From assembly GCA_964634305.1 (NCBI GenBank), contig CAZWLE010000001.1, forward strand, positions 1,128 through 65,127: DNA of 64,000 bases, given 5' to 3'. The translations under genes were made by a program, and so were the position numbers. This DNA is from an uncultured Candidatus Saccharibacteria bacterium. GTDB lineage: Bacteria; Patescibacteriota; Minisyncoccia; Phycocordibacterales; Phycocordibacteraceae. Shown piece by piece: positions 19,873-54,402 of this stretch. Below the pieces are notes generated by a model. The model made no database searches. It was not told the origin of the DNA and worked only from the letters and a program-made list of their open reading frames with translations. How positions within the stretch are numbered: position 1 is the stretch's first letter; every line of letters begins with the position of its first letter.

Positions 19873-19887
19873 GTGCCCAGTCTCGAT

Positions 19888-24128: not shown

Positions 24129-24199
24129 GTGCGCCTTCACCCGCCCTTCACTAGGCGTTCGCGGTATAATGGGTGGGATTACCGGCTAGCCTCGCATAC

Positions 24200-24700: not shown

Positions 24701-24702
24701 GT

Positions 24703-25059: not shown

Positions 25060-25106
25060 AGGAGGCGTGTGGGTGGGGATAGTGCGACACGTATAATGGG
25101 CGGGCT

Positions 25107-26765
25107 ATGACGCAGGACGAGGCACTCTCGATTCTAAAGACCGGTGCGAACGCATTTCTGACCGGAGAGCCGGGCAGCGGCAAGACGCATACAGTAAACG
25201 CATATGTACGGTGGCTGCGGTCGCATGGTATCGAACCAGCGATTACTGCCTCAACGGGTATTGCTGCAACGCACGTAGGCGGCATGACCATTCATGCGTG
25301 GAGTGGTATTGGTATCCGTGAATATTTGTCGCCCTCTGATGTTGATGCGATTGCGTCCAAAGAGCATGTGGCTCGTCGTATTGGGAAAGCAACGACGCTC
25401 ATCATCGATGAAATCTCAATGCTCTCTGGCGAAGCACTTACTATGGTTGATAGTGTGTTGCGTGAAGTACGTCGCGATGACCGTGCGTTTGGTGGGCTTC
25501 AGGTCGTTATGGTGGGTGACTTCTTCCAGTTGCCGCCGGTCGGGAAAGCCGGACGCCCGGCTTCTTTTGCGTTCCAATCCGCTGCGTGGAATGCACTCAA
25601 TCCCCTGACGCTCTATCTAGAAGAACAACACCGTCAGGAAGATACGGAGTTTACTGACCTTCTCGGTCGCATACGAAGCGGTACGGCGGACCATAGTGAC
25701 GTATCGCGCATCATGTCCCGTGAGACAGAAGACGATGAAGGTACGCGTGAGTTGCCGCGCCTTTACACGCATAACGCTGACGCTGACCGCGAGAATGCGA
25801 GTAAGCTCGCGGCACTCCCCGGCACAGTGCGTACGTGCTACATGGACGCCACCGGTCCTGATGCGTTGGTAGACGCTCTAAAACGTGGCTGTTTGTCGCC
25901 AGAGCAGCTTGAACTTAAAGAAGGGGCGGTGGTGATGTTCACGAAGAACAATCCGATGAGTGGCTACAGTAACGGCACGATTGGGGTTGTGGAGGGATTT
26001 GAAGGAGGGAGCGGGTATCCCGTCGTGCGCACTCGCGATGAGCGCACGCTTATCGTGATGCCCCAAGACTGGGCCGTTGAAGAGAACGGTAAGGTGCGTG
26101 CAAAGCTCTCTCAGGTGCCACTGCGTTTGGCGTGGGCTATCACCGTGCATAAAAGCCAAGGCCAATCGATTGATGCTGCTCTCATAGACCTTTCACGCGC
26201 GTTTGAATACGGTCAAGGATATGTAGCACTCTCTCGCTTACGTTCGCTTGAAGGGTTGCATCTTCTTGGCTGGAACGAAAATGCCCTCATGGTGCATCCT
26301 CTGGTTGCGCAAATGGATACTATATTTCGCGCGTCCTCTCATGAAGCGGCACGAATTTTTGGTGCTCTCCCAGACCGTGCACAGTTAGAGAACGATTTCA
26401 TACGAGCGTCTGGCGGAACGCTTCAAGCGTCGAGCGATGGCGAGCGAAAGGGAAAGCCCTCCACCTATGACACTACCTACGAACTCATAACGGAAGGTAA
26501 AAGTCTGTTGCTCATCGCTAAAGAGCGAAACATGACGGTTGGCACTATCGTCACGCATCTTGAGAAGCTCTACGAAGCGGGACGGCTTGAGCTAGATGCA
26601 ATTGCAGAGCTTTCACCAAAGGCAGTGGTAGACGGTCTTGGGGTTATTGGCGAGGCATTTACCAAAGCGAAGACCTCATCGCTCACTCCGGTGTTTAAAC
26701 GCCTTAAAGGGAAGTACACCTTCGACGAATTGAAACTCGCACGACTCCTCCTTTCGGACTCCTGA
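25107..26765 (+). CDS. PIF1/RecD-family SF1B DNA helicase with C-terminal HTH-like extension
   Basis: Walker A GEPGSGKTH, Walker B LIIDEISM, MVGDFFQLPPV and AITVHKSQGQS motifs, plus a roughly 150-aa C-terminal tail. Confidence 0.7.
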   Translation: MTQDEALSILKTGANAFLTGEPGSGKTHTVNAYVRWLRSHGIEPAITASTGIAATHVGGMTIHAWSGIGIREYLSPSDVDAIASKEHVARRIGKATTLIIDEISMLSGEALTMVDSVLREVRRDDRAFGGLQVVMVGDFFQLPPVGKAGRPASFAFQSAAWNALNPLTLYLEEQHRQEDTEFTDLLGRIRSGTADHSDVSRIMSRETEDDEGTRELPRLYTHNADADRENASKLAALPGTVRTCYMDATGPDALVDALKRGCLSPEQLELKEGAVVMFTKNNPMSGYSNGTIGVVEGFEGGSGYPVVRTRDERTLIVMPQDWAVEENGKVRAKLSQVPLRLAWAITVHKSQGQSIDAALIDLSRAFEYGQGYVALSRLRSLEGLHLLGWNENALMVHPLVAQMDTIFRASSHEAARIFGALPDRAQLENDFIRASGGTLQASSDGERKGKPSTYDTTYELITEGKSLLLIAKERNMTVGTIVTHLEKLYEAGRLELDAIAELSPKAVVDGLGVIGEAFTKAKTSSLTPVFKRLKGKYTFDELKLARLLLSDS

Positions 26766-26784
26766 CCCTTGGTATACTAGGTAT

Positions 26785-27456
26785 ATGAACTGGAAGGGCT
26801 GGACGCTGTTTGCCATTATCCTCGCGCTCGCCGGAGCGATAACAGCCTTTATACTCGTTGCGAACGATACACCGCCCCCTGCGCCGGTAGTAGAGGAAGA
26901 AGTACCAAATCTTGAAGGTCAGAATCTGTACGCAAGTGGTGAGTATGGTTTTACGCTCCGCTATCCTGCGTCTGCGCGTCTTGAAGAAGCATTCTCTGCG
27001 GAGTATCACCTCGCTCCAACCTGGCGTGCGTCAGCGCGTGAAGATACCGGTACTCCTGTGCTTGCGCTCGTTGCGTATGAGACGGAAAGCGATAGTTCGT
27101 ACCCTCGTTACTACCGGGCGCTCGTGCGTCTTGGGGTGTCAGACGATGCAGCGGATGTGTCATCGTGTGAGTCAGTAACGCCTGATTCAGGGGAAGAGGC
27201 CCTTGCAGATGTCGTATTGAATGGCACGACTTGGAGTGCGTTCTCCTTTGCAGATGCTGGCATGCAGCAGTACGTCAAAGGTGTCTCATATCGCACCGTG
27301 CATAACGGCAAGTGTTACGCACTCGAGAAGATTGCCGCTGGTTCCTCGTATCGTGATGACCCAGAAAGTGGAAGTGATATCCCTGACGAAGAGCTCGACG
27401 CAGAATATGCGCAGCTTGATGCGATTGTTTCCACCTTCACGTTCTCTGCGCCATAG
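26785..27456 (+). CDS. Secreted hypothetical protein (N-terminal TM/signal)
   Basis: WTLFAIILALAGAITAFILVA anchor. No recognisable domain. Confidence 0.35.
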   Translation: MNWKGWTLFAIILALAGAITAFILVANDTPPPAPVVEEEVPNLEGQNLYASGEYGFTLRYPASARLEEAFSAEYHLAPTWRASAREDTGTPVLALVAYETESDSSYPRYYRALVRLGVSDDAADVSSCESVTPDSGEEALADVVLNGTTWSAFSFADAGMQQYVKGVSYRTVHNGKCYALEKIAAGSSYRDDPESGSDIPDEELDAEYAQLDAIVSTFTFSAP

Positions 27457-27501
27457 TTTCGTTCTTGGTAGTCGTGTGCTAGAGTAGCCCGCAATACAGG
27501 T

Positions 27502-28497
27502 ATGGAAACATCCTACGAGTCTGAGCTCGTTAAGGTCAGAAATGGCCGGGATGTCTCGTTTTTCGACCTTTACTCCATAGACCAGTTGTCGCGCGAGGAT
27601 ATCGCGCTTCTTTTTGACCTAGCAAAGACCTTTAAGAAGGCAAAGACCGCAAAGCTCACTCTCCTTAAAGGGAAGTCTCAAGTGAACGCCTTCTTTGAAG
27701 CGTCGACCCGTACGATGTCGTCGTTTGACCTTGCGGCAAAGCACCTCGGTATGGATACGACCAGTGTGAGTGGGAGTAACTCTTCATCTAAGAAGGGAGA
27801 GAGTTTTATAGATACGGTGGAGACGCTCGACGCATACAATCTTTCAACGATTGTTATCCGCTGCACGCAGGCGGGCGGTCCAGAGCTTGCGTCACGCCAT
27901 ATTGGCGCTGCAGTTATTAACGCCGGTGACGGTTGGCACGAGCACCCTACGCAGGGTCTTCTTGATGCGTTCACTATCTGCGAGGAGTTCGGCACCCTCG
28001 ACCTCTCGGGTCGCACCGTGACGATAGTAGGTGACATTACGCACTCGCGCGTGTTTGGCTCTCTCGTACGTATTCTTAAGAAGCTTGGCGCAACGGTGCG
28101 TGTTGCGGCGCCTGAAACCTTCTTTCCGCAAGGCGTCGAAGCATTTGGCATTGAGACCTTTACCGATGTTGATGCAGCGGTGACGGGGGTGGATGTCATT
28201 TACGCACTACGCGTTCAGGAAGAGCGTGGTGCAAAGGGCGATATTCCAACGATGCGTGAATACTCTAAAACCTTTGGCGTTAATCCTCGTCGTCTCGCAC
28301 TCGCTAAGCCAACCGCGATAGTTATGCATCCAGGACCTGTCATGCGCGATATCGATGTGCATTCCTCTCTCGTGTCTCGTCACCCACAGTCACGCATTCT
28401 TGCGCAGGTAGAGAACGGCATGGCGATTCGCAAAGCCATTTTGTACGTCCTCGCGGAGCGCTGTGACGGTAAAACTAAGGACTACACCCTCGTATGA
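27502..28497 (+). CDS. pyrB: Aspartate carbamoyltransferase catalytic subunit
   Basis: STRT motif (FEASTRTMSSF), HPTQ motif and HPGP motif. Confidence 0.9.
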   Translation: METSYESELVKVRNGRDVSFFDLYSIDQLSREDIALLFDLAKTFKKAKTAKLTLLKGKSQVNAFFEASTRTMSSFDLAAKHLGMDTTSVSGSNSSSKKGESFIDTVETLDAYNLSTIVIRCTQAGGPELASRHIGAAVINAGDGWHEHPTQGLLDAFTICEEFGTLDLSGRTVTIVGDITHSRVFGSLVRILKKLGATVRVAAPETFFPQGVEAFGIETFTDVDAAVTGVDVIYALRVQEERGAKGDIPTMREYSKTFGVNPRRLALAKPTAIVMHPGPVMRDIDVHSSLVSRHPQSRILAQVENGMAIRKAILYVLAERCDGKTKDYTLV

Positions 28498-29786
28498 GCA
28501 CGCTGCTTATAAAAAACGGACATGTTATCGACCCAGCAAATGGGATTGATGACGTTATGGATATCTACGTCGAAGACGGAACGATAGCAGCGGTTGGCAC
28601 GAGTCTGAAGCAAAACGCAGAAGAGACGATTGATGCTACTGGTCTTGTCGTCACTCCAGGGTTGGTCGACATGCATGTGCACCTGCGAGAGCCAGGTCGT
28701 GAAGACCAGGAAACGATAGAGACCGGCGCAAAAGCAGCGATAGCGGGTGGGGTTACGTCGATTGCGGCGATGCCAAATACTGCGCAAGTTGCAGACAATC
28801 AGACGGTGATTGAGTTTGTGCGCAATCGCGCGGCGGCACTTGGCCTGGCAAACGTATATCCGGTTGGTGCAACGACTAAGCGCATAGAAGGCGAGATGCT
28901 TGCTGAGATGTGGGAAATGAAGCGCTCTGGAGCGGTTGCAGTTACTGATGACGGCGCGGATGTCGACAACGACAATCTCCTTCTCAAGGCCATGGAGTAC
29001 GCGAAGACGCACGACATGCTTGTTATTAGTCACTGCGAGACAGAAGACTTGTCTGACGGTGGCGTCATGCATGAAGGCTGGGTATCAACGCAGCTTGGTC
29101 TTCCGGGTATCCCGGAAGTGGCGGAAGATCTTGCGGCACATAAGAGTATTCTTCTTGCACGTCGTTCCGGTGCTCGCTCGCACCTCACGCATCTTTCAAC
29201 AAAAGGTGCGGTGCAGTCGTTACGCGACGCAAAAGCTACGGGCATGACGAATGTCACCGGTGATGCCTCTATTCAGCACCTCTGCCTTACGGACGAAGAA
29301 TGTTTTGGATACAACACGGCCGCTAAGATGTATCCGCCGCTTCGTCCTGACGACCATCGTCTTGAAGTCGTGAAGGCACTCAAGGACGGAACGATAGATG
29401 CGATAACGACTGACCATGCGCCACATATTGAACCGGACAAGCTAAAGCCATTCCAGGATGCAGCGCGCGGCACGATAGGCCTTGAGACGTCATTTGCTGC
29501 AGCAAACACCTACCTTGTTGGTGAAGGACATCTCACGCTTGCTGAGGTTGTTGCGCTGATGACCCACAAGCCTGCAGCAATACTTCGTATCCCGAAGGGT
29601 ACCCTCGCTGTCGGTGCTGATGCAGACATTGCGTTGTTTGATACTAAGAAGAAATGGACGGTAGACCCGTCGGTATTCCAGTCGAAGAGTAAGAACTCTG
29701 TGTTCGCTGGTAAGGAGCTTGTCGGTAAGGCGGTGCACACGGTCGTTGCTGGCGTGGTGAAGTATCGAGATGGGGCGATAGTGTAG
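28494..29786 (+). CDS. pyrC: Dihydroorotase
   Basis: Metal-dependent amidohydrolase motifs (DMHVHLREPG; DHAPH). Length 430 aa. It overlaps the pyrB stop. Confidence 0.9.
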   Translation: MSTLLIKNGHVIDPANGIDDVMDIYVEDGTIAAVGTSLKQNAEETIDATGLVVTPGLVDMHVHLREPGREDQETIETGAKAAIAGGVTSIAAMPNTAQVADNQTVIEFVRNRAAALGLANVYPVGATTKRIEGEMLAEMWEMKRSGAVAVTDDGADVDNDNLLLKAMEYAKTHDMLVISHCETEDLSDGGVMHEGWVSTQLGLPGIPEVAEDLAAHKSILLARRSGARSHLTHLSTKGAVQSLRDAKATGMTNVTGDASIQHLCLTDEECFGYNTAAKMYPPLRPDDHRLEVVKALKDGTIDAITTDHAPHIEPDKLKPFQDAARGTIGLETSFAAANTYLVGEGHLTLAEVVALMTHKPAAILRIPKGTLAVGADADIALFDTKKKWTVDPSVFQSKSKNSVFAGKELVGKAVHTVVAGVVKYRDGAIV

Positions 29787-29790
29787 TCGT

Positions 29791-30567
29791 ATGGATGTCG
29801 TCGCATTCCTTGAGGCCACTCCTAGGCTTCTTGAAGCGAACGCATCAATCGTACTCGTCATCGCGGGTGTATGTACCGGTATCATTGCAACTGTAATAGG
29901 AGGCGGGATGTTCTTTGCTCTCCCCGTCTTTCAGTTTTTATATCCTGGCGTACCAGCGGGTGTACTGGTGGGAAATATTAAAGTTGGGTCACTCATTCGT
30001 GGTATTGGCTCAGCGCTTTCTACGTTCCGACTCATCGATTTTCGGCACACGATTCGTATCTCGCTCGTTGCCTTTATTGGAACGATTATTGGCGCAAGTA
30101 TTGTTGCAGACCTAGACCAGCGGTGGCTGTTTTTCATAACGGTTGTCTCGGTACTGGTTGCGGAGTTTTCTCCACGTCTTGCGCGCTACGTCACCGAGCG
30201 AACATTTGCGATAGCGTCCTTTCTTATTGGTGTGTACACGGGTTTTCTTGGTGCGGGGACGGGTATCTTGTTGGTTGCACTGCTTCGTCTTAAGCATGCT
30301 GCTGATACGGATATAGGAAAGGTGAAAGCGAACGCACGATTCGCAGAAACCTTTCTGGGTATTAGCGCGGTAGCGGTTCATTTCTTTCATGGAAATCTTG
30401 TGCCGGCGCTATGGATTCCTTGGTCGATTGGTGCACTCATTGGCGGCGTGATTGGTGGTGTGGTGCTGGTACACATTAGTAACCTCTCAGGACCGCTCCA
30501 GAAGCTTATCCTTCGCGTAGGGTTCGGGTTTGCGATACTAGTGTCGGCGCTCGCGTTCGTGCGCTAG
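29791..30567 (+). CDS. TSUP-family (TauE/SafE, DUF81) membrane permease
   Basis: Repeated 4-TM halves with Gly-rich helices (GGGMFFALPVF; GAGTGILLVALL). Confidence 0.55.
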   Translation: MDVVAFLEATPRLLEANASIVLVIAGVCTGIIATVIGGGMFFALPVFQFLYPGVPAGVLVGNIKVGSLIRGIGSALSTFRLIDFRHTIRISLVAFIGTIIGASIVADLDQRWLFFITVVSVLVAEFSPRLARYVTERTFAIASFLIGVYTGFLGAGTGILLVALLRLKHAADTDIGKVKANARFAETFLGISAVAVHFFHGNLVPALWIPWSIGALIGGVIGGVVLVHISNLSGPLQKLILRVGFGFAILVSALAFVR

Positions 30568-30576
30568 AATCGAGGC

Positions 30577-31650
30577 ATGTTACAGACCCCCTTCTTCGAC
30601 CCGAAGAAAACGTATTACGAGAACTGGGAGGAAGGCCCCTTTGCTGGATTTGCGGATGGGGTCGTTCTTGAGGAACCTGCGCCGCGCTTTACGTTCCTTG
30701 GTGAGAAGATTGCGTACCCGCTTGGTATCCCTGCAGGGCCGCTGCTTAACGGAAAGTATGTTGATGCAGCACTAGATAAGGGATGGAGTGTGCCGGTGCA
30801 TAAGACGGTGCGCAGCGCTATACATCCCTGCAACGAGTGGCCAAACGTTCTTGCACTCAAAGATTTTCCTGGTGCGCTTTCCATAGAGCGAGCGCAGGAA
30901 CCAGTTGTGGTTAACGATGTCTACGAGGAACCGCTTTCTATTACGAACTCATTCGGTAATCCTTCGTACGACCCTACGGTCTGGCAGAACGATTTGCGTG
31001 CATCGCTTGCGCATGCGAAAGAAGGGCAGCTCGTTATGTGTTCATTTGAAGGTACGAAACGGGAAGGCATGTCGAGCGATGATTATGTCGCTGAGTGGGC
31101 AAACGGCATGAAAAGTGTTGCTGATACAGGCGTGAAGGTGGTTGAAGCGAATTTTAGTTGTCCGAACGAAGGCGCCGCCACGTTGCTCTGTTTTGATGTA
31201 CCAAAGGTAAAGACCGTCGTGACCGCGATAAAGGAGAAGATAGGTGACACAAAGCTCATTATTAAGATTGCGTTCTTTCAGCCTGACGCGCTTCGTAAAC
31301 TTGTCACGGAGGTTGGCAGTATCGTAGACGGATTTTCTGCCATTAACACTATTGCAGCGCCGGTCGTAAACGAAGACGGGTCACAGGCGCTCCCTGGTGC
31401 GCATCGCGTGAAGAGTGGTATCTGTGGCCATGCCATAAAGTGGGCAGGCCTTGATATGACGCGTCGTCTCGCGTCGCTCCGTGAGGAGCTTGGCATGAGC
31501 TACGGCATCATCGGATGTGGTGGGGTGACGGTACCGAGTGATTTCAAGGAGTTCCGTGACGCCGGTGCTGACATTGTTATGAGCGCTACGGGCGCTATGT
31601 GGAATCCGTACCTCGCCAAGGAGATAAAGGAGGCGTATCCTGACGCGTGA
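30577..31650 (+). CDS. pyrD: Dihydroorotate dehydrogenase-family protein (PyrD-like TIM-barrel flavoenzyme)
   Basis: PLGIPAGPL substrate-loop-like motif, C-terminal GIIGCGGV...AGADIVM FMN-binding motif and its position inside the pyr cluster. Confidence 0.5.
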   Translation: MLQTPFFDPKKTYYENWEEGPFAGFADGVVLEEPAPRFTFLGEKIAYPLGIPAGPLLNGKYVDAALDKGWSVPVHKTVRSAIHPCNEWPNVLALKDFPGALSIERAQEPVVVNDVYEEPLSITNSFGNPSYDPTVWQNDLRASLAHAKEGQLVMCSFEGTKREGMSSDDYVAEWANGMKSVADTGVKVVEANFSCPNEGAATLLCFDVPKVKTVVTAIKEKIGDTKLIIKIAFFQPDALRKLVTEVGSIVDGFSAINTIAAPVVNEDGSQALPGAHRVKSGICGHAIKWAGLDMTRRLASLREELGMSYGIIGCGGVTVPSDFKEFRDAGADIVMSATGAMWNPYLAKEIKEAYPDA

Positions 31651-31651
31651 T

Positions 31652-32281
31652 ATGGAACAAGAACTCATCCGCATTTTGAAAGAAACGGGTGCTCTTATCC
31701 CTGATAGTCACTTTGTCGGTGTCTCCGGGCGTCACATGGATACGTATGTGAACAAAGATGCGCTTCTCACGCATCCAGAGGCTGCGTGTCGTGTAGGTGA
31801 GATGTTTGCGGAACTTAATAAGGAGCTAGACATTGAAGCTGTCATTGCACCTGCTATGGGCGCCATCATTCTTGGTCAGTGGACCGCGTATCACCTTGGA
31901 AAGTTAAAAGGGAAAGAAATCCTCTCGGTATATACCGACAAGGCTGACGGGGACGAGCAAGTGCTGAAGCGTGGCTACGATAAAGCGATTGCCGGTAAAA
32001 AGGTGCTCGCTATTGAAGACGTTATTACGACCGGAGGGTCGGTTAAGAAAAGTGCGGTAAAGGCTGCAGAAGCAGGGGCGATTGTGCTTCAGGCGTCGGT
32101 CATGATGAACAAGAATCCTGACGAAGTGACGAGTGAGTCACTTGGTATCCCGCTCTCATCTATAGCAACAATGGTCGTACCGACTTACACCGAAGAAGAA
32201 TGTCCACTTTGTGCGAGTGGTGTACCGGTTAATACAACGGTAGGACACGGAAAGCAGTTTATGCAGAAGAAGAATGCATGA
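31652..32281 (+). CDS. pyrE: Orotate phosphoribosyltransferase
   Basis: PRPP-binding motif VLAIEDVITTGGS. Length 209 aa. Confidence 0.75.
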   Translation: MEQELIRILKETGALIPDSHFVGVSGRHMDTYVNKDALLTHPEAACRVGEMFAELNKELDIEAVIAPAMGAIILGQWTAYHLGKLKGKEILSVYTDKADGDEQVLKRGYDKAIAGKKVLAIEDVITTGGSVKKSAVKAAEAGAIVLQASVMMNKNPDEVTSESLGIPLSSIATMVVPTYTEEECPLCASGVPVNTTVGHGKQFMQKKNA

Positions 32282-32856
32282 CGACCTACCTGCTTCACGG
32301 CGGCATGGTGCGATATGACAACGAACACAACGATGCCTTTTTCAAGGCCATAGCCGACGCTATTCCGGAAAACGGTAAGGCGCTTGTGGTGTTATTTGCT
32401 TCAAAAGAAAATAATTGGCCTGAACAACTCGAAAACATGCAGGAACTGGTGCTTGCGCAGGCAGGAGGTAAATCAATTACGTTCTCCATCGCATCACGCG
32501 AGCATCTTATGGAGGAAATTGCCGCTTCTGATGCAGTGCTCATTCGTGGTGGTAGCACCAATATGTTGCTTGAAGCGCTGAGGAAATATCCTCTTTCAAG
32601 AGAATCGCTTGATGGGAAAGTGGTGGCAGGCTCGTCAGCTGGTGCATACGTACTTGCGGCATATGGATATGACAAATCAGAGAAAGCAGTGCGAGTGGGA
32701 CTTGGGTTGGTGCCAGTGAGAGTGCTATGCCACTATTTGAGTGATACGCCTGAAGAACGAACAGATGATACGGGAATAGCGGTTATGAATAGTGTGCATC
32801 AAGAACTTGAGCTAGTGGTATTAAAAGAGTGCGAATGGAAGCAATTTTCACTATGA
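32278..32856 (+). CDS. Peptidase S51 (dipeptidase E / cyanophycinase-like) family protein
   Basis: Class I glutamine amidotransferase-like fold with GSSAGAY nucleophile motif and RGGSTN. Confidence 0.5.
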   Translation: MTTYLLHGGMVRYDNEHNDAFFKAIADAIPENGKALVVLFASKENNWPEQLENMQELVLAQAGGKSITFSIASREHLMEEIAASDAVLIRGGSTNMLLEALRKYPLSRESLDGKVVAGSSAGAYVLAAYGYDKSEKAVRVGLGLVPVRVLCHYLSDTPEERTDDTGIAVMNSVHQELELVVLKECEWKQFSL

Positions 32857-33533
32857 CCGACCGCATTGTTATTTCGGCCGATGAGCTAGGGGAGCAGGAG
32901 CTTCTCGCGCTCACGAGTGCCGTAGGGTCTGAGGTGTATGCAATAAAAATTCATGACCGGTACGACGCACTCGGTCCCTCTATCGTCGGTGCCCTTAAAG
33001 ATGCAGGGGCGCAGCGCGTATGGATGGACGCTAAGCTCCATGACATTCCAAATACGGCACGCGCACGCGCAAAGGCATTTGCCGAGAATGGGGTTGATAT
33101 TCTCACAGTGCATGCCTCTGGTGGCGTCGACATGATGCGTGCTGCAAAAGAAGGAGCACCGAACGCGGAAATCTTTGCTGTAACGGTACTCACATCACTC
33201 TCTGAGGAAACGACGGGGTTAGTGTATGGACGGTCATCTATGGAAACGGTACGTACCCTCGCGCATCTTGCTCAGGAAGCCGGTATTGACGGTGTGGTGT
33301 GTTCGGCAAAAGAAGTCGGCGTACTCTCCAAAGAACCAGCCCTCGACGGTCTTAAGTTCGTCGTGCCAGGGGTTCGCTCACCGGGCGCCGATGCGCACGA
33401 CCAGAAACGCGTGGCTACCCCTGCTGAAGCCATCAAGGACGGTGCATCTCTGCTCGTTATTGGTCGTCAGGTCACTACGGCTCAGGACCCAGTAGAAGCG
33501 CTCGCTGCTATTCGTGCGGAGCTTTCTTCATAA
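32829..33533 (+). CDS. pyrF: Orotidine-5'-phosphate decarboxylase
   Basis: Catalytic DAKLHDIPNT motif. TIM-barrel length 234 aa. Confidence 0.8.
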   Translation: MRMEAIFTMTDRIVISADELGEQELLALTSAVGSEVYAIKIHDRYDALGPSIVGALKDAGAQRVWMDAKLHDIPNTARARAKAFAENGVDILTVHASGGVDMMRAAKEGAPNAEIFAVTVLTSLSEETTGLVYGRSSMETVRTLAHLAQEAGIDGVVCSAKEVGVLSKEPALDGLKFVVPGVRSPGADAHDQKRVATPAEAIKDGASLLVIGRQVTTAQDPVEALAAIRAELSS

Positions 33534-48821: not shown

Positions 48822-48896
48822 GGGCCTTTAGCTCAGTTGGTAGAGCACCTCATTTGCAATGAGGGGGTCAGGAGTTCGAATCTCCTAAGGTCCACC
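48822..48896 (+). tRNA. tRNA-Ala(TGC)
   Basis: GGGCCTTTAGCTCAGTTGGTAGAGCACCTCATTTGCAATGAGGGGGTCAGGAGTTCGAATCTCCTAAGGTCCACC, with the G3:U70 identity pair, anticodon loop UUUGCAA and discriminator A. Coordinates cross-checked against the track ORF 48753 frame. Confidence 0.9.
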
Positions 48897-48903
48897 TTTC
48901 TTC

Positions 48904-48933
48904 AAAACAGGCACGAAAGTGCCTGTTTTGTTA
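48904..48933. terminator. Terminator hairpin after tRNA-Ala
   Basis: AAAACAGGCAC-gaaa-GTGCCTGTTTT (A-tract/T-tract symmetric). Confidence 0.5.
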
Positions 48934-48952
48934 TATCGCGCTTAACAGTTTG

Positions 48953-48964
48953 GAGGTTCTAATC
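48953..48964 (+). repeat. Direct repeat copy 1 (GAGGTTCTAATC), 53 nt upstream of the protease ATG
   Basis: Exact 12-mer shared with 49947..49958. A CTAGG motif also follows both copies. Confidence 0.6.
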
Positions 48965-49017
48965 CTTACCTAGGGTTTTGTGCAAAACGTCATATTTAGA
49001 CGTAAAATCTAGGTGCT

Positions 49018-49947
49018 ATGGAATCCCAATCCTTTTCTGAGCGCTATCAAAAGATAAAGCCTAGCGTGGTTGCAATTGTGGCAACCATCTCTAAGAACGG
49101 AGATTTTCCTGACATTCTCGGTACTGGGTTTATAGCCAGAGAAGATGGATTGATAATAACTAACAATCACGTTGTTCAGTTGATCAAAAAGCTCCCAAAG
49201 AGAAAGGATGCGCCAAAAGATGAGTGGCCTATTAAAGTACTCTACTTAGAAAATATTCCAGAAAAGGGAATGGCTTCCGCATATCTGGAAGTCGAAGGAG
49301 TCGGAACACTTGAACGCGAACAACCAATAGAGGGTCACTATTATGGACCAGATATTCCCGATGTAGGATTTATCTTTGTGAAAGTTCGAGGACTGCCGTT
49401 TCTTGAAGTTGAAGAGACAATCGAATTAAAAGAGGGCGATGAGATATACGTAGCCGGATTTCCAATGGGTACACGAACTTTACGCGCCCCGGGCTGGATA
49501 CATCAAATCAATCCCGTTTTGCAAAGAGGCATACTTAGTGCAATGCAACCGTTTCCATGCGATAAGCCCCATGGATACTTAGTAGACGTGGTTGCACAGG
49601 GTGGCTCTAGTGGTTCTCCAATTTTTAACCCTAAAACAGGGAAGGTTGCCGCCTTATTGTATGGAGGTATTCCAGAGAGGAACATAATTCCTTTGCCAGG
49701 AGGATCCGGACTACCCTATACCTACGGAACTTCACTCACGTTAGCTATACCAAGTCCGATCATGAGCGCTCTATTGAAAATGGATATGCATGACAGAAAA
49801 ACAAATCAAATTGATCAGCGTGACACAAGTACATATCCCACCCTTGCTGAATTCTTTGAGTCGCATGAAATGAAGATGCGTACACCAAGGTCGAGTGAAC
49901 CGGATGTCACGAAGGTGTCTGCCGCTGACCTGAATGAAGAGGTATAG
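49018..49947 (+). CDS. Trypsin-like (S1/chymotrypsin-fold) serine protease
   Basis: Catalytic His (ITNNHVV) and GGSSGSP serine motif. The codon usage is visibly AT-richer than the neighbours. Confidence 0.65.
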   Translation: MESQSFSERYQKIKPSVVAIVATISKNGDFPDILGTGFIAREDGLIITNNHVVQLIKKLPKRKDAPKDEWPIKVLYLENIPEKGMASAYLEVEGVGTLEREQPIEGHYYGPDIPDVGFIFVKVRGLPFLEVEETIELKEGDEIYVAGFPMGTRTLRAPGWIHQINPVLQRGILSAMQPFPCDKPHGYLVDVVAQGGSSGSPIFNPKTGKVAALLYGGIPERNIIPLPGGSGLPYTYGTSLTLAIPSPIMSALLKMDMHDRKTNQIDQRDTSTYPTLAEFFESHEMKMRTPRSSEPDVTKVSAADLNEEV

Positions 49948-49958
49948 AGGTTCTAATC
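49947..49958 (+). repeat. Direct repeat copy 2 (GAGGTTCTAATC), overlapping the protease stop codon
   Basis: Exact 12-mer match to 48953..48964. Confidence 0.6.
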
Positions 49959-50102
49959 TCCGAGAGTCTCTAGGCCCTAAAGCCCATTTCGGTCCTTCAG
50001 ACCACCCCACGAATCCACCACTCTAAGAAACCGTATTGGCCACGATTGAATCAAGGAAGTTCTAAAATGGTGTAAGAAACACCACATTCTTTCATTTCGT
50101 CC

Positions 50103-50342
50103 TTGGTATACTTTAACCACATGGCACGTTCCCCTGAAGGTCCTAGTAATCCGTTAGAACAGCAGCGTGCTGCGCTTTTGCGGCGTGTGTTTAGGCTCCG
50201 ACAAAACCCTAAGATTTTTGGTAACCCCGTATCTTCTCAGCATCTAACCAACATAGAAAATCTTATTAAGAAAGCTCCTGAGAAACTAGAACTCAGTACC
50301 TACGAGTTAGTGCTTTCTGAACTGGAAGAAAATTTGAAGTAG
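50103..50342 (+). CDS. Hypothetical small protein (79 aa), AT-rich
   Basis: ORF only. No motif. Confidence 0.25.
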   Translation: MVYFNHMARSPEGPSNPLEQQRAALLRRVFRLRQNPKIFGNPVSSQHLTNIENLIKKAPEKLELSTYELVLSELEENLK

Positions 50343-50370
50343 GAAAGTTGTGTATGTTGTGTGGAATAGT

Positions 50371-50384
50371 TGTGTAGATACACA
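50371..50384 (+). promoter_or_regulatory. Inverted repeat TGTGTA-GA-TACACA (candidate LexA operator) within a cluster of TGTGTA hexamers (50348–50410)
   Basis: A near-perfect palindrome 24 nt upstream of the lexA-like ATG. Additional TGTGTA copies lie at about 50351, 50393 and overlapping the start. Confidence 0.4.
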
Positions 50385-50401
50385 CTTTCGAGTGCTAAGG
50401 T

Positions 50402-51100
50402 GTGTATATGTCTCACAACGACTCACTCACTGCTGCACAGGAAGAGACGCTCGCCCTTATCAAGCGTCACATCGCCCGCCATGGACAATCACCGACCATC
50501 TTGGAGCTTAAGCAAGCTCTTTCGCTCCGTTCTATCCGCTCTGTCACTCAGCGCCTCGAAGCGCTCGAGCGCAAAGGATTCATCTCTCGAGACCGGTTTC
50601 AGCACCGAAGCATTAAGGTCTTGGGAACCATCTCCACCCAGTACCTCGCGTCGGATTTCATAGCGGTTCCTGTCATCGCGTCTGCAGGCTGTGACGCGAT
50701 GGAGGTATTCGCTCAGGATGAATTTGGAGAGTTTATTGCGGTTGACCGGAAGCTTGTCGGTCGTGCGACCTCAATTGCTGGTATTAAAGCAGTAGGAGAT
50801 TCGATGATAGACGCTGGTATACATAATGGCGATTACGTTATCGTAGAAGTCACTGACCAGGTAGGAAATGGTGACCGTGTGGTAGCTATCATTGGGAATA
50901 TGGCAGTCATAAAGCGTTATGAGCAGGCACAGGGCGTTACGCTCCTGCACCCTGAGAACGCGAAGGAAAGCTACACACCTATTGTGGTTAGCGAGGAAGA
51001 TTCAAAGATATTTGGAAAAGTACTCTCCATAATTCCAGGAATAGAATGGCAGGATGACGTAAAAATCGAGTATTACGACGGCTACGGACCATCTCTCTAA
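50402..51100 (+). CDS. lexA: LexA-type repressor (wHTH plus S24 peptidase)
   Basis: N-terminal LexA DNA-binding domain (LTAAQEETLALIKRHIARHGQSPTILELKQALSLRSIRSVTQRLEALERKGFISR), Ala-Gly cleavage site (ASAGCDA), and Ser (VGDSM) and Lys (AVIKRY) catalytic dyad. The start is probably the ATG at 50408, preceded by an AAGGTG Shine-Dalgarno. Confidence 0.8.
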   Translation: MYMSHNDSLTAAQEETLALIKRHIARHGQSPTILELKQALSLRSIRSVTQRLEALERKGFISRDRFQHRSIKVLGTISTQYLASDFIAVPVIASAGCDAMEVFAQDEFGEFIAVDRKLVGRATSIAGIKAVGDSMIDAGIHNGDYVIVEVTDQVGNGDRVVAIIGNMAVIKRYEQAQGVTLLHPENAKESYTPIVVSEEDSKIFGKVLSIIPGIEWQDDVKIEYYDGYGPSL

Positions 51101-51147
51101 GCTCCTCAGCCTCTTTTAAGCAATATTTGGTATAAAGAAATGGTCGC

Positions 51148-52443
51148 ATGCAGGCCACCTCTTTTACATTCTGTTCATACAAGATAGATACAGAGCGTTC
51201 GATTGTGACGTTTTCGTACAGGGTAGAGTTTGCATTTGGTTTGCACTATACCTTCACTGATTCTCTTGTTTTCAAAGGAGTACCGTCTACTGCGTGGGCG
51301 AAGATACCAAAGGAAGTACTTGAACCAACGCTTCAAGCATTGCTTCTCATGCTCGGTATCAACTACTGGAGCTTTTTTCGTGCCAAAGATATTCGTATAG
51401 AAGGATTTACCCTTACCTGTGAACAAGCTCATTTCTGGGATACGCTCTACCTCAATGGACTAGCTGAGTTCTTTTATCTTGCAAAGATTGATTTCCGTAA
51501 CCTCATAGCGTTTCCCTATAGCGAAACGGTAGATGCGCCTCACCCCATAGAGTTCAAGCGACCATCACGCTCACTCCTGCTAAACGGCGCAGGCAAAGAC
51601 TCAATACTGTCAGCAGAAATGCTAAAAGAACAAGGACGGTCTTTTGACTTTTTTGCCTTTTCTCCTACACGCGCTCACCACCGAATTGCAAAGCTGGTAG
51701 GCGCAAAGTCTATAGAAGTCGAGCGCCGATACGACCCGTTGCTGAAATCGTTTGTGACGGGTGCTTACCCCTCAGTCTCTACCTTTACCTTCATTGCAGT
51801 ACTGCTTGCGGAACTCCTTGGGTACGACTCCATTGTTTTCTCTAATGAACGAAGTGCCGATATTGGAAATCTCGACTACCTGGGGCTACCGGTAAACCAC
51901 CAATGGTGCAAATCATCTGAGGCAGAGAAGCTCATAAACGACTACCTTCAGAGGTACATAACCCGCGATATCACCACGAGTTCCTTATTGCGACCGTACA
52001 GCGAGCTAGCGATAGTGCAGCGCTTCGTGCGCTATCCGCAGTACCACCACTATGTAACGAGCTGTAATACCTACTTTTGGCTTAGTCCTCTAGAGCAGTT
52101 CTTTGCACCCACCAATTACTGGTGTAAACGCTGCCCGAAATGTGTCTTTCTTTTCGCGTGCTTTGCAGCCTTTCTTCCAAAAAAGGAGGTTGTTTCTATC
52201 TTTAGGGGTAACGTGCACAGTAAAAAGCACCTTTTACCTCTATACAAAAGCATCCTGGGCATCGAAGGCTTTAAACCACTCGATTGTGTGGGGGAACCAG
52301 AAGAAATGATACTTGCTATGCACTATGCCTTAGAGCGAGGGGAGTATGGGGAAGAGCCTGCTATGAAGCTCTTTACTGAGCATTTCCCTAATAAGCATGA
52401 CTATGCCTCACTTGAGAAGAAAGTCTTCACGGACACGGTATAA
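51148..52443 (+). CDS. Hypothetical 431-aa protein with a PP-loop-like (SGGxDS-type: LNGAGKDS) motif and a C-terminal CxxCxxC cluster
   Basis: LLLNGAGKDSILSAEML resembles the adenine-nucleotide alpha-hydrolase / PAPS-reductase-like P-loop, and WCKRCPKC looks like a metal site. The rest is not recognisable. AT-richer than neighbours. Confidence 0.35.
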   Translation: MQATSFTFCSYKIDTERSIVTFSYRVEFAFGLHYTFTDSLVFKGVPSTAWAKIPKEVLEPTLQALLLMLGINYWSFFRAKDIRIEGFTLTCEQAHFWDTLYLNGLAEFFYLAKIDFRNLIAFPYSETVDAPHPIEFKRPSRSLLLNGAGKDSILSAEMLKEQGRSFDFFAFSPTRAHHRIAKLVGAKSIEVERRYDPLLKSFVTGAYPSVSTFTFIAVLLAELLGYDSIVFSNERSADIGNLDYLGLPVNHQWCKSSEAEKLINDYLQRYITRDITTSSLLRPYSELAIVQRFVRYPQYHHYVTSCNTYFWLSPLEQFFAPTNYWCKRCPKCVFLFACFAAFLPKKEVVSIFRGNVHSKKHLLPLYKSILGIEGFKPLDCVGEPEEMILAMHYALERGEYGEEPAMKLFTEHFPNKHDYASLEKKVFTDTV

Positions 52444-52462
52444 CCGTTGGTATACTTAGCGT

Positions 52463-52705
52463 ATGGCTGACGAACAAGACCAAAAAGCACTAAAAGAGGC
52501 GCGGGAGCGATATACCAATGCGCGTGCGAGTATAGGTGACCTATACGGCAAACTTGATGAAATTATTAAAGAATATAAGAGAGATGAGAAGCTCTCCTCA
52601 CTAGAAGCGTTCAGGGAATTTCGTGCTTTTTGTCGTAAGCGACTTGTGGAGGATGAAGATACGCTACGCCTCGTATTGAACGGCTCTCTACGGAACGACA
52701 ACTAA
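52463..52705 (+). CDS. Hypothetical small helical protein (80 aa)
   Basis: ORF followed by a strong terminator. Charged, helical composition. Confidence 0.3.
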   Translation: MADEQDQKALKEARERYTNARASIGDLYGKLDEIIKEYKRDEKLSSLEAFREFRAFCRKRLVEDEDTLRLVLNGSLRNDN

Positions 52706-52710
52706 TAAAG

Positions 52711-52737
52711 AAAAAGCCCGCTCGCGCGGGCTTTTTC
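52711..52737. terminator. Bidirectional intrinsic terminator
   Basis: AAAAAGCCCGC-tcgc-GCGGGCTTTTT between convergent genes. Confidence 0.55.
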
Positions 52738-52756
52738 TTTAGTTAAGCCGTAGGGC

Positions 52757-53014
52757 TTAGGAGAGGTGAGCCGAGACGAGCTTAGTCATCTCGAACATGG
52801 TTACCTCACCCTTACCACCAAAGATAGCCTTAAGCTTGTCATCCGCGAGAATGTTGCGCTTGTTAGCAGGATTCTGGAGGTCATTCTTCTTGATGTACTC
52901 CCAAATCTTCTTGGTAACTTCGGAACGAGGCATAGGGCCCTTACCTACAACCGCTTCGAGGTCTGCGGAAAGGTTCATTGGCTTTGAAAGGGCCGGATTG
53001 AGTGCTCTTGGCAT
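52757..53014 (-). CDS. SWIB/MDM2-domain protein
   Basis: KKIWEYIKKNDLQNPANKRNILADDKLKAIFGGKGEVTMFEMTKLVSAHL matches the SWIB fold signature. Length 85 aa. Confidence 0.6.
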   Translation of the reverse strand: MPRALNPALSKPMNLSADLEAVVGKGPMPRSEVTKKIWEYIKKNDLQNPANKRNILADDKLKAIFGGKGEVTMFEMTKLVSAHLS

Positions 53015-53089
53015 AATGTGTCTTAATTTGGTCAGTTCCTAATGGACCGCGTCAGTATACCCCAATTATCCTTAGGATAGAGGGGGGCT

Positions 53090-53746
53090 GTGTATAGGAT
53101 AGGAAAAGGAGACAGGTATCGATTTTGCTGTTATAGTCCAAACCACCCCGTTTTATCTCCTATGGATATTTCTCGCCCTGCGTCAAAACAGCCTATTCCC
53201 GCGCACGCACAGCGTGTGTTTAAGGGCGATATCTTCGATGTGTGGCAGTGGGAGCAGGAGTTGTACGACGGCAGCACCAAAATATTCGAAAAGGTGCAGC
53301 GTCAGGACACTGTCGTCATTATTCCGTCCACGTCAGACGGCAAACTTATCTTCGTTGAAGATGAACAGCCTGCTCGTAGCACGATTCTGACCTTCCCTGC
53401 AGGAAGAATGGATAAGGAAGGGGAAAATCCTCTTGAGTGTGCGCAGCGCGAACTCCTTGAAGAGACGGGCTACGCGTCAGAGGACTGGAGCCTCTATAAA
53501 GCCCACCAGCCCATTACAAAAGTAGATTGGGCAATCTATATCTTTGTGGCTAGAGGATGCCAGAAGGTAGCTGAAGCAGACCCTGGCCCTGGAGAACGCA
53601 TCACCGTCTCTCTTGTGACGCTTGATGACATCATTGCAAAGGTCGGAGACCCTCGTCTCATCCATGATGACCTTGATGTAGAGCTCATCGAAGCTAAATA
53701 CAATCCCGAAGCACGTACACGTCTTGAACAGATACTGTTTGGATAA
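53090..53746 (+). CDS. NUDIX hydrolase (ADP-ribose pyrophosphatase-like)
   Basis: Nudix box GRMDKEGENPLECAQRELLEETGY. An alternative ATG start lies at 53162. Confidence 0.65.
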   Translation: MYRIGKGDRYRFCCYSPNHPVLSPMDISRPASKQPIPAHAQRVFKGDIFDVWQWEQELYDGSTKIFEKVQRQDTVVIIPSTSDGKLIFVEDEQPARSTILTFPAGRMDKEGENPLECAQRELLEETGYASEDWSLYKAHQPITKVDWAIYIFVARGCQKVAEADPGPGERITVSLVTLDDIIAKVGDPRLIHDDLDVELIEAKYNPEARTRLEQILFG

Positions 53747-53783
53747 CAAATGAGAGTACGTCATACGGGTATACTTACGAAAG

Positions 53784-54311
53784 ATGAAAACACCTCGCGC
53801 TATTAGCATTGTCGAACGCATAACGACCTGGACAGGGTCGGTGTCTTCCGTCATCGTTCACACCCTGCTATTTCTTGGTGCGTTCGCGATTGGCATCGTT
53901 GGTATTGCGGAGTGGGAGATTGTCCTCCTTGTGCTCACCACTATCGTCTCCCTTGAAGCTATCTATCTCTCCCTCTTTATCCAGATGTCCGTGAATCGCA
54001 ACACGGCTCAGCTTCGTGAGGTTGAGGAGGATATCGATGAAATTCAGGAAGACGTGGAAGAGATTAGCGAAGATCTTGATGAGATTCAGGAGGACGTCGA
54101 AGAAATCAGCGAGGACTTGGATGAAATTCAAGAAGATGTGGAAGAAATGTCTGAAGACATTGATGAACTCCAGGAAGACGTTGAGGAAATGACTGAGGAA
54201 GACGCAGCGGAAGACAAACGAGAAGAAGCGCAGGCAAAAACGCTCGAAGAACTTACGGGTGATATTCGTCGTATCCTCGACGACCTTGAAGCGCTAAAAA
54301 AGAAGAAGTAA
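53784..54311 (+). CDS. DUF1003-like 2-TM membrane protein with a C-terminal acidic tandem-repeat tail
   Basis: Two TM helices (LLFLGAFAIGIVGIAEW; VLLVLTTIVSLEAIYLSLFIQ), the conserved MSVNRNTAQL segment, then 4 copies of EDxDEIQEDVEEIS. Confidence 0.45.
   Translation: MKTPRAISIVERITTWTGSVSSVIVHTLLFLGAFAIGIVGIAEWEIVLLVLTTIVSLEAIYLSLFIQMSVNRNTAQLREVEEDIDEIQEDVEEISEDLDEIQEDVEEISEDLDEIQEDVEEMSEDIDELQEDVEEMTEEDAAEDKREEAQAKTLEELTGDIRRILDDLEALKKKK
54027..54194 (+). repeat. Four imperfect copies of a 42-bp tandem repeat inside the CDS, encoding 14-aa acidic units
   Basis: gaggatatcgatgaaattcaggaagacgtggaagagattagc and three variants, read directly from the sequence. Confidence 0.7.
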
Positions 54312-54326
54312 AGTGCGCATACGTCT

Positions 54327-54402
54327 GGGCCTTTAGCTCATCTGGTAGAGCGCATCCATGGCATGGATGAGGTGAGGGGTTCGAGTCCCCTAAGGTCCAC
54401 CA
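54327..54402 (+). tRNA. tRNA-Ala(GGC)
   Basis: GGGCCTTTAGCTCATCTGGTAGAGCGCATCCATGGCATGGATGAGGTGAGGGGTTCGAGTCCCCTAAGGTCCACCA, with G3:U70, anticodon loop AUGGCAU and encoded CCA. Confidence 0.9.

Follow-up and report, generated by a model that had tools for sequence, protein, structure and literature searches.

A probable tRNA-associated gene-turnover hotspot with an integrase-less protease islet in a small Parcubacteria genome

Integrases that target tRNA and tmRNA genes, and hotspots of horizontal gene transfer (HGT) lying between core genes, are established concepts. For the integrative and conjugative elements (ICEs) of streptococci a further class has been described, the cis-mobilizable elements (CIMEs), which lack an integrase, are flanked by attachment (att) sites and follow a pattern of accretion and mobilization. 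The locus considered here is the 5,430-bp interval between two tRNA-Ala genes, with anticodons TGC and GGC, in a 64,000-nt stretch of DNA (the window: positions 1,128–65,127 of contig CAZWLE010000001.1, assembly GCA_964634305.1, deposited as an uncultured Candidatus Saccharibacteria bacterium). With a probability of roughly 0.68, we regard it as a locus rich in tRNA genes and of ancestral standing in a small Parcubacteria genome, within the candidate phyla radiation (CPR), that acts as a turnover hotspot and carries an integrase-less islet, namely a cassette of ~1.1 kb encoding a trypsin-fold serine protease. Gene turnover associated with tRNA genes is a kind of behaviour already known, and the finding is therefore a clarification rather than a surprise.

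As with tRNA-targeted islands, the cassette sits at a tRNA 3′ end, has a partial direct repeat on its far side, deviates in composition and is absent from the closer relatives of its host. As in described hotspots, collinear core flanks surround an interior that turns over, and in one relative (L027, recovered through its 88 % identical protease on a 675-kb contig) there appears to be tandem accretion at the same tRNA. It departs from such islands in that the cassette lacks an integrase, is a single gene of 1.1 kb, much below the usual size of such islands, and resides in a CPR genome of ~0.7 Mb, and from integration hotspots in that the locus lies in a dispersed tRNA cluster with conserved resident genes. 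With CIMEs it shares an att-flanked module without a recombinase. In L027 a further AT-rich module seems to stand in line with it at that tRNA, as would be expected had an element with an integrase inserted beside a resident one and then left or decayed. The differences from CIMEs are that no cognate ICE or integrase was identified, that the repeats are degenerate (17–20/23) and that the case for mobility is drawn from divergence and patchy distribution.

The two boundary tRNA genes and the features that they enclose, as positions in the window, are as follows:

48822–48896, plus strand: tRNA-Ala(TGC), left boundary of the locus (ARAGORN; Rfam, 72.7 bits)
49018–49947, plus strand: trypsin-fold serine protease (Trypsin_2; PF13365, E 2e-16)
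50103–50342, plus strand: o79, an open reading frame (ORF) of 79 aa with no credible family, AT-rich and genome-specific
50402–51100, plus strand: LexA repressor, winged helix-turn-helix plus S24 peptidase (TIGR00498; PF01726 and PF00717)
51148–52443, plus strand: MurL-family epimerase, 431 aa (NF041275, E 1.5e-74)
52463–52705, plus strand: o80, an ORF of 80 aa with no credible family, genome-specific
52706–52741, 3′ of o80: bidirectional terminator with a perfect 16-bp stem (inverted repeat and terminator scan)
52757–53014, minus strand: SWIB-domain protein (PF02201, E 4e-31)
53090–53746, plus strand: NUDIX hydrolase (PF00293)
53784–54311, plus strand: TMcc, a membrane protein with an acidic heptad-repeat coiled coil (weakly DUF948/DUF1003-like; 21-nt tandem repeat at 54027–54194)
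54327–54402, plus strand: tRNA-Ala(GGC), right boundary, just 5′ of the atp operon (ARAGORN; Rfam, 59.3 bits)

Both tRNA genes lie where the original prediction, a reading of the same letters, had placed them, with ARAGORN and Rfam in agreement. The coordinates and families it had given for the genes between them are borne out by Pfam and TIGRFAM/NCBIfam searches, the label of the 431-aa protein being the exception. Its description of the tRNA pair as sharing identical 5′ and 3′ halves is overstated: the two genes are 80 % identical overall, and identity is complete only over the first 14 nt and the last 13 nt, which correspond to the acceptor stem, with its G3:U70 pair, and to part of the D arm.

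Homologues of the MurL-family protein, in metagenome-assembled genomes with Nomurabacteria, Kaiserbacteria and Paceibacteria labels, place the window within CPR/Parcubacteria. Comparisons covered the 64-kb window and, in each relative, ±10 kb around the corresponding locus. In addition to L027, four genomes (L036–L039) were read from a search with AtpB, which returned many relatives at 80–90 % identity. Amongst these, the L039 contig begins 3.7 kb 5′ of atpB and does not reach the tRNA-Ala(TGC) site. By concatenated AtpB/F/A/G/D, identity to the window is 84 % for L037, 83 % for L036, 82 % for L038, 81 % for L039 and 78 % for L027, and a neighbour-joining tree places L027 as the outgroup. The gene orders at the locus, with (−) for the minus strand, are as follows:

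Window: uvrA, uvrC, ddl, PCD; tRNA-Ala(TGC); protease, o79, LexA, MurL, o80, SWIB(−), NUDIX, TMcc; tRNA-Ala(GGC); atpB
L037: uvrA, uvrC, ddl, PCD; tRNA-Ala(TGC); RimK(−), 73 aa, SWIB(−); tRNA-Val(CAC); C39 peptidase; tRNA-Pro(CGG); NUDIX; tRNA-Ala(CGC); TMcc; tRNA-Ala(GGC); atpB
L036: ddl, PCD; tRNA-Ala(TGC); 254 aa, 480 aa(−), LexA, RimK, 78 aa(−), SWIB(−); tRNA-Val(CAC), tRNA-Pro(CGG); NUDIX; tRNA-Pro(GGG), tRNA-Ala(CGC); TMcc; tRNA-Ala(GGC); 147 aa(−), DUF5667, atpB
L038: uvrA, uvrC, ddl, PCD, TauD(−); tRNA-Ala(TGC); DUF4760, 64 aa, Pyr_excise, 274 aa(−), SWIB(−); tRNA-Pro(CGG)(−); 103 aa; tRNA-Val(CAC)(−); NUDIX; tRNA-Pro(TGG)(−); TMcc; tRNA-Ala(GGC); atpB
L039: LexA, DUF2283, SWIB(−), TMcc, atpB; tRNAs absent
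L027: uvrA, uvrC, ddl; tRNA-Ala(TGC); Exo_endo_phos, 385 aa, protease, NUDIX, DUF2177, TspO, YceG(−), TMcc; tRNA-Ala(GGC); atpB

Five of the six genomes (the window, L027 and L036–L038) have the bracket of tRNA-Ala(TGC) and tRNA-Ala(GGC) between ddl, or ddl and PCD, and atpB. The two genes, whose adjacency elsewhere the original prediction had proposed as something to look for, are never adjacent, the intervals measuring 3.8–6.7 kb. On either side, the blocks uvrA-uvrC-ddl-PCD and atpBEFHAGDC are collinear with those of the relatives. Four of the enclosed genes recur at this locus: lexA, with 69 % identity to L036 and 73 % to L039 by tblastn; the SWIB gene, with 82–88 % identity in L036–L039 and the same place and orientation; the NUDIX gene, which keeps its relative position in L027, L036, L037 and L038 and is 44–63 % identical there; and TMcc, with 55–63 % identity in all five relatives. 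All four are host-like in the GC content of third codon positions (GC3; 0.515 for lexA) and in codon bias. Since the bracket is found in the relatives, and since identities are vertical-like and GC3 is host-like, the bracket and this backbone are ancestral and vertically inherited.

The slots between the backbone genes hold different genes in each genome, and the locus is thus a hotspot of gene turnover. Apart from RimK, which is common to the sister pair L036/L037, each slot-filling gene belongs to a single genome; the genes immediately after tRNA-Ala(TGC) are genome-specific everywhere and AT-rich in four of five cases (0.38–0.46 GC; the RimK gene of L037 stands at 0.47). For a streamlined CPR genome of ~0.7 Mb this describes a particular form of gene flux, with turnover confined to a tRNA-rich interval between rigidly collinear core blocks. 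The tRNA genes themselves take part in it. In the relatives, tRNA-Val(CAC), tRNA-Pro(CGG/GGG/TGG) and tRNA-Ala(CGC) are interleaved with the SWIB, NUDIX and TMcc genes in the following zones:

L036, 6769–7701: internal tRNA zone
L037, 7747–9362: internal tRNA zone
L038, 8064–9271: internal tRNA zone, tRNAs inverted

At the window locus there are no internal tRNA-Val, tRNA-Pro or tRNA-Ala(CGC) genes and no recognisable remnants of them in the spacers 53015–53161 and 53747–53783; the window has lost three internal tRNAs. As a separate observation, ARAGORN reports a starred, permuted-type tmRNA at L036 8178–8742, over tRNA-Ala(GGC) and a minus-strand ORF, which is probably a false positive arising from the tRNA-Ala-like acceptor.

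Composition sets the interval apart from its surroundings, for reasons that are mostly not those of a foreign island. Its GC content is 46.6 %, where the remainder of the window has 51.9 %; this is the lowest value of all 5.4-kb windows (~3.5 SD under the mean), and its tetranucleotide usage is the most deviant in the 64 kb. The AT-richness that had been estimated by eye is thereby confirmed by computed values, and sliding GC and tetranucleotide profiles both place the interval at the extreme of the window. Gene by gene, the estimate fares less evenly. The protease gene is a genuine outlier, and the only one in the interval at codon level, with a GC content of 0.442, a GC3 of 0.387, lower than in any other called gene, and a Karlin B of 0.52 against 0.2–0.3 for genes of similar size. 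The murL-family gene, which had likewise been named as AT-rich, has a GC content of 0.462 with a normal GC3 (0.491) and codon bias (Karlin B 0.287); its deficit lies at codon positions 1 and 2 and therefore reflects amino-acid composition. In TMcc, GC is depressed at codon position 2 only, because of the acidic repeats. The lexA (0.499), SWIB (0.496) and NUDIX (0.495) genes are all within 1 SD of the window mean. Lastly, the interval is 3.4–5.7 GC points under its flanks in all five genomes measured. The dip thus has three causes: the foreign cassette together with o79, at ~43 % GC (the spacer and o79 stretch 50087–50401 is 41.9 % GC); the amino-acid composition of the MurL-family protein, acting at codon positions 1 and 2; and a general tendency of the locus, in all relatives, to be GC-poorer than its flanks. 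For annotation, this means that most of the GC dip is no sign of foreign origin.

The protease cassette (~48870–49968) is foreign and horizontally acquired, as its boundaries, composition, patchy distribution and divergence in conflict with the host phylogeny indicate. Its parts are the following:

~48870–48896, plus strand: attL-like repeat, the 3′ end of tRNA-Ala(TGC)
48897–49017, plus strand: cassette leader, with a terminator-like hairpin at 48906–48925 and the motif GAGGTTCTAATC at 48953–48964, 86 % identical to L027 9881–10000
49946–49968, plus strand: attR-like repeat, a direct but degenerate copy of the T-arm plus 3′ acceptor strand of tRNA-Ala(TGC) that runs over the stop codon of the protease gene
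49943–50086, plus strand: repeat-bounded element of ~130 nt, with two T-arm-like motif copies ~103 nt apart and then a small hairpin (50068–50084), forming the right end of the block shared with L027

Similarity to L027 sets in at 48883, inside the 3′ end of the window tRNA-Ala(TGC), and stops at 50086; over this length the window is 83.6 % identical in nucleotides to L027 9866–11067, against 65–75 % for flanking core genes. The non-coding flanks of the cassette are 86 % and 79 % identical between the two genomes, against 51–57 % for control spacers. Amongst 11 genes compared between the window and L027 by the Nei–Gojobori method, the protease gene has both the lowest synonymous (dS 0.80) and the lowest non-synonymous (dN 0.063) divergence, with 88 % identical amino acids and a dN/dS of 0.08. 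The corresponding dS is 1.10 for atpD, 1.14 for atpB, 1.70 for atpA and 2.04 for uvrA, the others being saturated. At the tRNA-Ala(TGC) site of the closer relatives L036–L038 the cassette is absent. Being present in the outgroup L027, missing from closer relatives and low in dS, it is therefore younger than the split of the hosts and has moved horizontally.

Repeats matching the 3′ end of the tRNA, which the original prediction had suggested might be hidden in the segment, do exist, and they bracket ~1.1 kb rather than 5.4 kb. The attR-like copy matches AGGAGTTCGAATCTCCTAAGGTC at 17/23 positions in the window and at 20/23 at the orthologous site of L027 (10926–10948), a score reached by 0/100 shuffles. 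The motif GAGGTTCTAATC occurs twice in the 64-kb window (48953 and 49947), with a further degenerate copy near 50050, and seven times in L027, with at least one copy in each intergenic gap of the AT-rich array; it is absent from L036–L038, the relatives without the protease, and from the part of the locus on the L039 contig, and no exact copy of it is present in the distant protease-homologue loci L029–L035. In the leader, 57 nt separate the motif from the end of the tRNA and 65 nt from the start codon of the protease gene; the 57-nt spacing recurs after the tRNA of L027. A shorter form, the 9-mer GTTCTAATC, has 8 occurrences in 650 kb of loci, 7 of which are in the window and L027 arrays, all on the plus strand. 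Of the ~130-nt element there are three copies (the window; L027 9735–9866; L027 10923–11060), with 79 % mean column identity. As a structured RNA the element was rejected, its fold having a z of 0.05 against shuffles and Rfam giving no match besides tRNAs.

A more elaborate arrangement is found in L027. At 9849–9930 this genome has a decayed tRNA 3′ end (...GTCCTAGGTTCCACC) followed by 50 nt identical to the post-tRNA sequence of the window, including the hairpin. This pseudo-end is of the type of the window tRNA and not of L027's own, and it lies 2.26 kb 3′ of the L027 tRNA-Ala(TGC). The order in tandem is thus tRNA, Exo_endo_phos gene and 385-aa gene, displaced tRNA 3′ end, protease and 20/23 repeat, as read from one genome with degenerate repeats. 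The intervening segment (L027 7608–9865) is a 2.26-kb AT-rich insert specific to L027, with 44–46 % GC, encoding the Exo_endo_phos protein (a nuclease/phosphatase) and a helical 385-aa protein that ends in an acidic tail and belongs to no family. A T-arm-like motif copy precedes both of the genes. The 385-aa protein was considered as a hidden recombinase and rejected, since it is helical and acidic and has neither a Pfam signal nor a recombinase signature.

By its site, repeat, composition and distribution, the 1.1-kb cassette resembles a tRNA islet; the integrase of such an islet is missing, its one ORF being the protease. The statement that no integrase or recombinase is present holds for the interval and for the 49 window ORFs scanned, in which none was detected. 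On the preferred reading, site-specific recombination at the 3′ end of tRNA-Ala(TGC) would have brought the cassette in, regenerating the tRNA on one side and leaving a decaying copy on the other. As an integrase is absent, the cassette would be either an element mobilised in trans or what is left of a larger one, in the manner of a CIME. In L027, a second AT-rich element, comprising the Exo_endo_phos and 385-aa genes, would later have integrated at the same tRNA, a tandem accretion that moved the cassette 2.3 kb downstream along with the earlier tRNA 3′ end and its terminator. Besides carrying the cassette, the window shows two further lineage-specific changes: the MurL-family gene and o80 occupy the slot between lexA and the SWIB gene, and the internal tRNAs have been lost. 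Extended to more genomes, this reading of the cassette would give a handle on the poorly known mobilome of CPR and its recombinases.

A number of observations weigh against this account. We infer the recombination step solely from the anatomy of the repeats, there being no recombinase in the interval or amongst the scanned ORFs, and the cassette is defined from two genomes, the window and L027. The attR-like copy in the window is weak (17/23), and at the far right the pseudo-ends of the window and L027 are homologous to each other, where a simple attR model would have them host-specific. A dS of 0.80 is not recent, and strong constraint combined with multiple losses may account for it. The protease profile finds no match in IMG/VR, in INPHARED phages or in PLSDB plasmids. 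Motif copies stand ~65 nt 5′ of each AT-rich start codon (range 53–108 nt) and contain −10-like hexamers (TCTAAT/TATAAT), including a perfect TATAAT at L027 9936, so that they are possible promoters. Lastly, the MurL-family gene, host-like in codon usage, may be ancestral in the locus and lost in the relatives.

Several of these points would also be accommodated if DNA taken up from a related cell had brought in the cassette by homologous recombination, with the conserved tRNA and the sequence next to it as anchors and the GAGGTTCTAATC copies as promoter or operator elements of the imported AT-rich genes, a proposal we consider doubtful, if the best of the competitors. It would account for the spacing of the motifs before start codons, for the absence of a recombinase, for right pseudo-ends that belong to the transferred block and for a ~130-nt element without structure, but not for the post-stop copy, whose 20/23 match to the T-arm and acceptor strand extends beyond any −10 core, nor for the several copies that lie at gene 3′ ends, over stop codons. 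Moreover, no promoter is reported at these motifs by a simple sigma-70-type scan, and L027, with its terminator and tRNA 3′ end displaced together, bears a classic footprint of tRNA integration.

A bolder interpretation, which we hold to be improbable, places at the 3′ flank of tRNA-Ala(TGC), in some Parcubacteria, a tRNA-anchored array of integrase-less, AT-rich single-gene cassettes (protease, Exo_endo_phos, 385-aa and o79) delimited by T-arm direct repeats GAGGTTCTAATC, which a recombinase encoded elsewhere would capture and shuffle in trans; if true, ultra-small genomes would possess a cassette system that resembles integrons but differs from them in mechanism. Integron arrays likewise consist of short single-gene units in one orientation and vary by genome, and the repeat-bounded element of ~130 nt just after the stop codon is a further point of likeness. 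In contrast to integrons, however, the repeats are direct and not inverted R″/R′ core sites (RYYYAAC/GTTRRRY), the element is unfolded (z = 0.05), the array is anchored at a tRNA and there is neither IntI nor attI. An integron cassette array in the strict sense was accordingly rejected, the inverted attC-type cores, the folding and IntI all being wanting. Rejected too was a phage attP or a phage or plasmid carrier, for which IMG/VR, INPHARED and PLSDB gave no matches; the pattern of the ~130-nt element has 0 matches in IMG/VR viral contigs.

It is similarly unlikely that no HGT took place, and that a vertical locus has merely undergone differential loss, the protease having been lost in L036–L038 and the low GC stemming from weakly expressed short genes and AT-rich spacers. 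The depressed GC of the interval in all five genomes, whether or not they have the protease there, agrees with such a history, as do the strong constraint on the protease (dN/dS 0.08) and the known propensity of CPR for gene loss. Protein constraint does not, however, explain the lowest dS of 11 genes, nor why the non-coding flanks of the cassette are 79–86 % identical when other spacers are at random level. At least two to three independent losses in the closer relatives would be needed, and the outlying Karlin B (0.52) and GC3 (0.387) of the protease gene, the window-type tRNA 3′ end carried by the L027 cassette and the recombinase-rich contexts of protease homologues all speak for transfer.

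That the whole 5.4-kb segment is one decayed island at tRNA-Ala, its second tRNA duplicated or captured and its integrase lost, is highly improbable and can be taken as largely refuted: the extreme GC and tetranucleotide values, the two same-strand boundary tRNAs with identical acceptor ends and the lack of essential translation or replication genes inside would suit it, but the tRNAs are different isoacceptors (TGC and GGC), the right one complete and with no att duplication, the same pair stands at the same chromosomal position in four other genomes, LexA, SWIB, NUDIX and TMcc recur with vertical-like identity and normal GC3, the tRNA-3′-end repeats delimit 1.1 kb only, an empty site is unseen, tRNA-Ala genes never being adjacent in relatives, and foreign composition is limited to the protease and o79 region. 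The original prediction had set this island beside a tRNA-gene-associated variable region, and the latter is supported, both by the remaining genes, which differ from genome to genome, and by the att-like repeats and signs of HGT at the protease cassette. It had also held that a gene set conserved between the two tRNAs, together with host-like composition, would speak against an island; this is largely what is found, with the qualification that the protease and o79 deviate and that the slots vary.

Returning to the islet, the protease itself appears to be a cytoplasmic trypsin-fold enzyme, a PDZ domain being absent and a signal peptide not evident; its resemblance to HtrA protease domains is distant only. 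Residues H51, D115 and S198 are invariant in 20 homologues, and this triad, together with the dN/dS of 0.08, indicates a working enzyme. Homologues at 63–69 % identity are found beside large serine recombinases, beside Schlafen/AlbA_2 genes, or beside resolvase fragments and a terminase, and these loci have only the protease itself in common with the window. Such surroundings point to a gene of the mobilome. In the homologous loci the protease is always the second gene of a tight pair, of which the first varies (a 387-aa Schlafen/AlbA_2 protein, or 289-aa or 418-aa proteins of no recognised kind):

L029, 3349–5441: homologue pair
L031, 6205–8005: homologue pair
L034, 7451–9652: homologue pair
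L033, 6011–6958: homologue pair

The arrangement may represent a module of sensor and protease, possibly with a link to defence. A named defence system was considered and set aside, as only weak partial matches were obtained from PADLOC (PDC-M35A, PDC-S45, RT-Protease) and PHROG, and no membership is claimed. Scanning metagenomes with the protease brought back only a second recovery of the 675-kb L027 genome, out of a sister sample (L028), and exact-sequence look-ups of the window protease and MurL-family protein gave no record.

The 431-aa protein had been described as unknown and PP-loop-like. The first part does not stand: by profile match it is a MurL-family epimerase, with residues 4–421 aligned to positions 8–420 of the 447-position NF041275 model at 251 bits. 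Strict orthology is not claimed, this score being below the Xanthomonadales equivalog cut-off of 700. An identical database protein (P0241) carries PF26298 and PF26299, and one homologue has been named as an epimerase by JGI. The second part was a reasonable impression, as MurL is an ATP-dependent epimerase for which adenylation has been proposed (PMC8788868). The protein harbours an SGGxDS-like NGAGKDS motif, in keeping with that chemistry. In a 2021 review, the MurD2/MurL pathway was limited to Xanthomonadales, a few Alphaproteobacteria and rare actinomycetes (PMC8788868). The window protein aligns end to end with the model of that pathway's epimerase and differs in its CPR host and in having no murD2-like ligase adjacent or in the 64 kb. 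Its gene lies 3 kb from ddl, and no Mur ligase other than ddl is present in the window.

As to how it arrived, the best non-self homologues form a plateau of 70–72 % identity over many CPR lineages, and none is found on the near-complete contigs of relatives (674,607, 659,246 and 742,240 bp), where AtpB and UvrA reach 82–90 %. The slot between lexA and the SWIB gene holds the MurL-family gene in the window, RimK in L036/L037 and DUF2283 in L039. Synteny through MurL loci was also tried as a route to the island question and discarded: the 26 loci with MurL homologues at 60–72 % identity share no other gene with the window. The gene is probably a lineage-specific arrival, by acquisition or relocation, that is now host-like in composition. 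At least 459 MurL-family proteins are found at E ≤ 1e-60 in CPR/Parcubacteria, with a plateau at 66–72 % and Nomura-, Kaiser-, Doudna-, Azam- and Staskawiczbacteria labels, and in the literature collection searched no paper pairs MurL with Patescibacteria. The family is thus apparently wide and under-reported in Parcubacteria, and could change the view of how D-glutamate is supplied for CPR cell walls. A RimK-type ATP-grasp ligase stands in the corresponding LexA/SWIB-adjacent slot of L036 (5064–6173) and L037 (6022–7116, minus strand), the two copies being 46 % identical to each other; MurL and RimK types both act on glutamate-containing substrates.

The LexA assignment is supported by a TIGR00498 score of 143 bits (cut-off 110.95) and by the Pfam domains LexA_DNA_bind (PF01726) and Peptidase_S24 (PF00717). 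The promoter of its gene (50343–50401) contains repeated TTGTGTA units and the following palindrome:

50371–50384, plus strand: TGTGTAGATACACA, in the lexA promoter, candidate LexA operator, present once in the window

A related palindrome, TTGTGTAT...ATACACAA (= CTTGTGTATCTCATACACAAG), lies 5′ of lexA in L039, so that the window and L039 both have the TTGTGTA...TACACAA type; in L036 there are direct TGTGTA repeats 5′ of lexA. TGTGTAGATACACA is a candidate LexA box of this lineage, in a single copy as would be expected of an autoregulated host repressor, and the recurrence of an operator-like palindrome in L039 counts towards the ancestral standing of lexA. Upstream of uvrA, uvrB and uvrC in the window, no SOS-box copy was found.

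The two short ORFs are specific to this genome. o79 has no family match and no tblastn match in any related locus, and sits in the variable zone between tRNA-Ala(TGC) and lexA; for o80, nothing was found in Pfam, NCBIfam or PADLOC, and PHROG gave one weak partial match (E 1.7e-4). The NUDIX ORF, as listed above, has a GTG start and a 24-residue extension unmatched in relatives, with alignments beginning at about residue 30; the true start is probably the ATG at 53162, which gives a spacer of 147 nt after the SWIB gene. In five of the six genomes TMcc adjoins atpB on its 5′ side, tRNA-Ala(GGC) being all that separates them, the exception being L036, where a 147-aa ORF and DUF5667 come between. 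An AtpI-like accessory role in the ATP synthase operon of this lineage is possible for it.

Outside the locus, the window harbours at 19873–33533 a seemingly complete set for de novo pyrimidine synthesis, consisting of carA, carB, pyrB, a pyrC-like amidohydrolase, pyrD, a phosphoribosyltransferase and pyrF. CPR members are usually described as being without nucleotide biosynthesis, and the presence of this set is therefore worthy of note.

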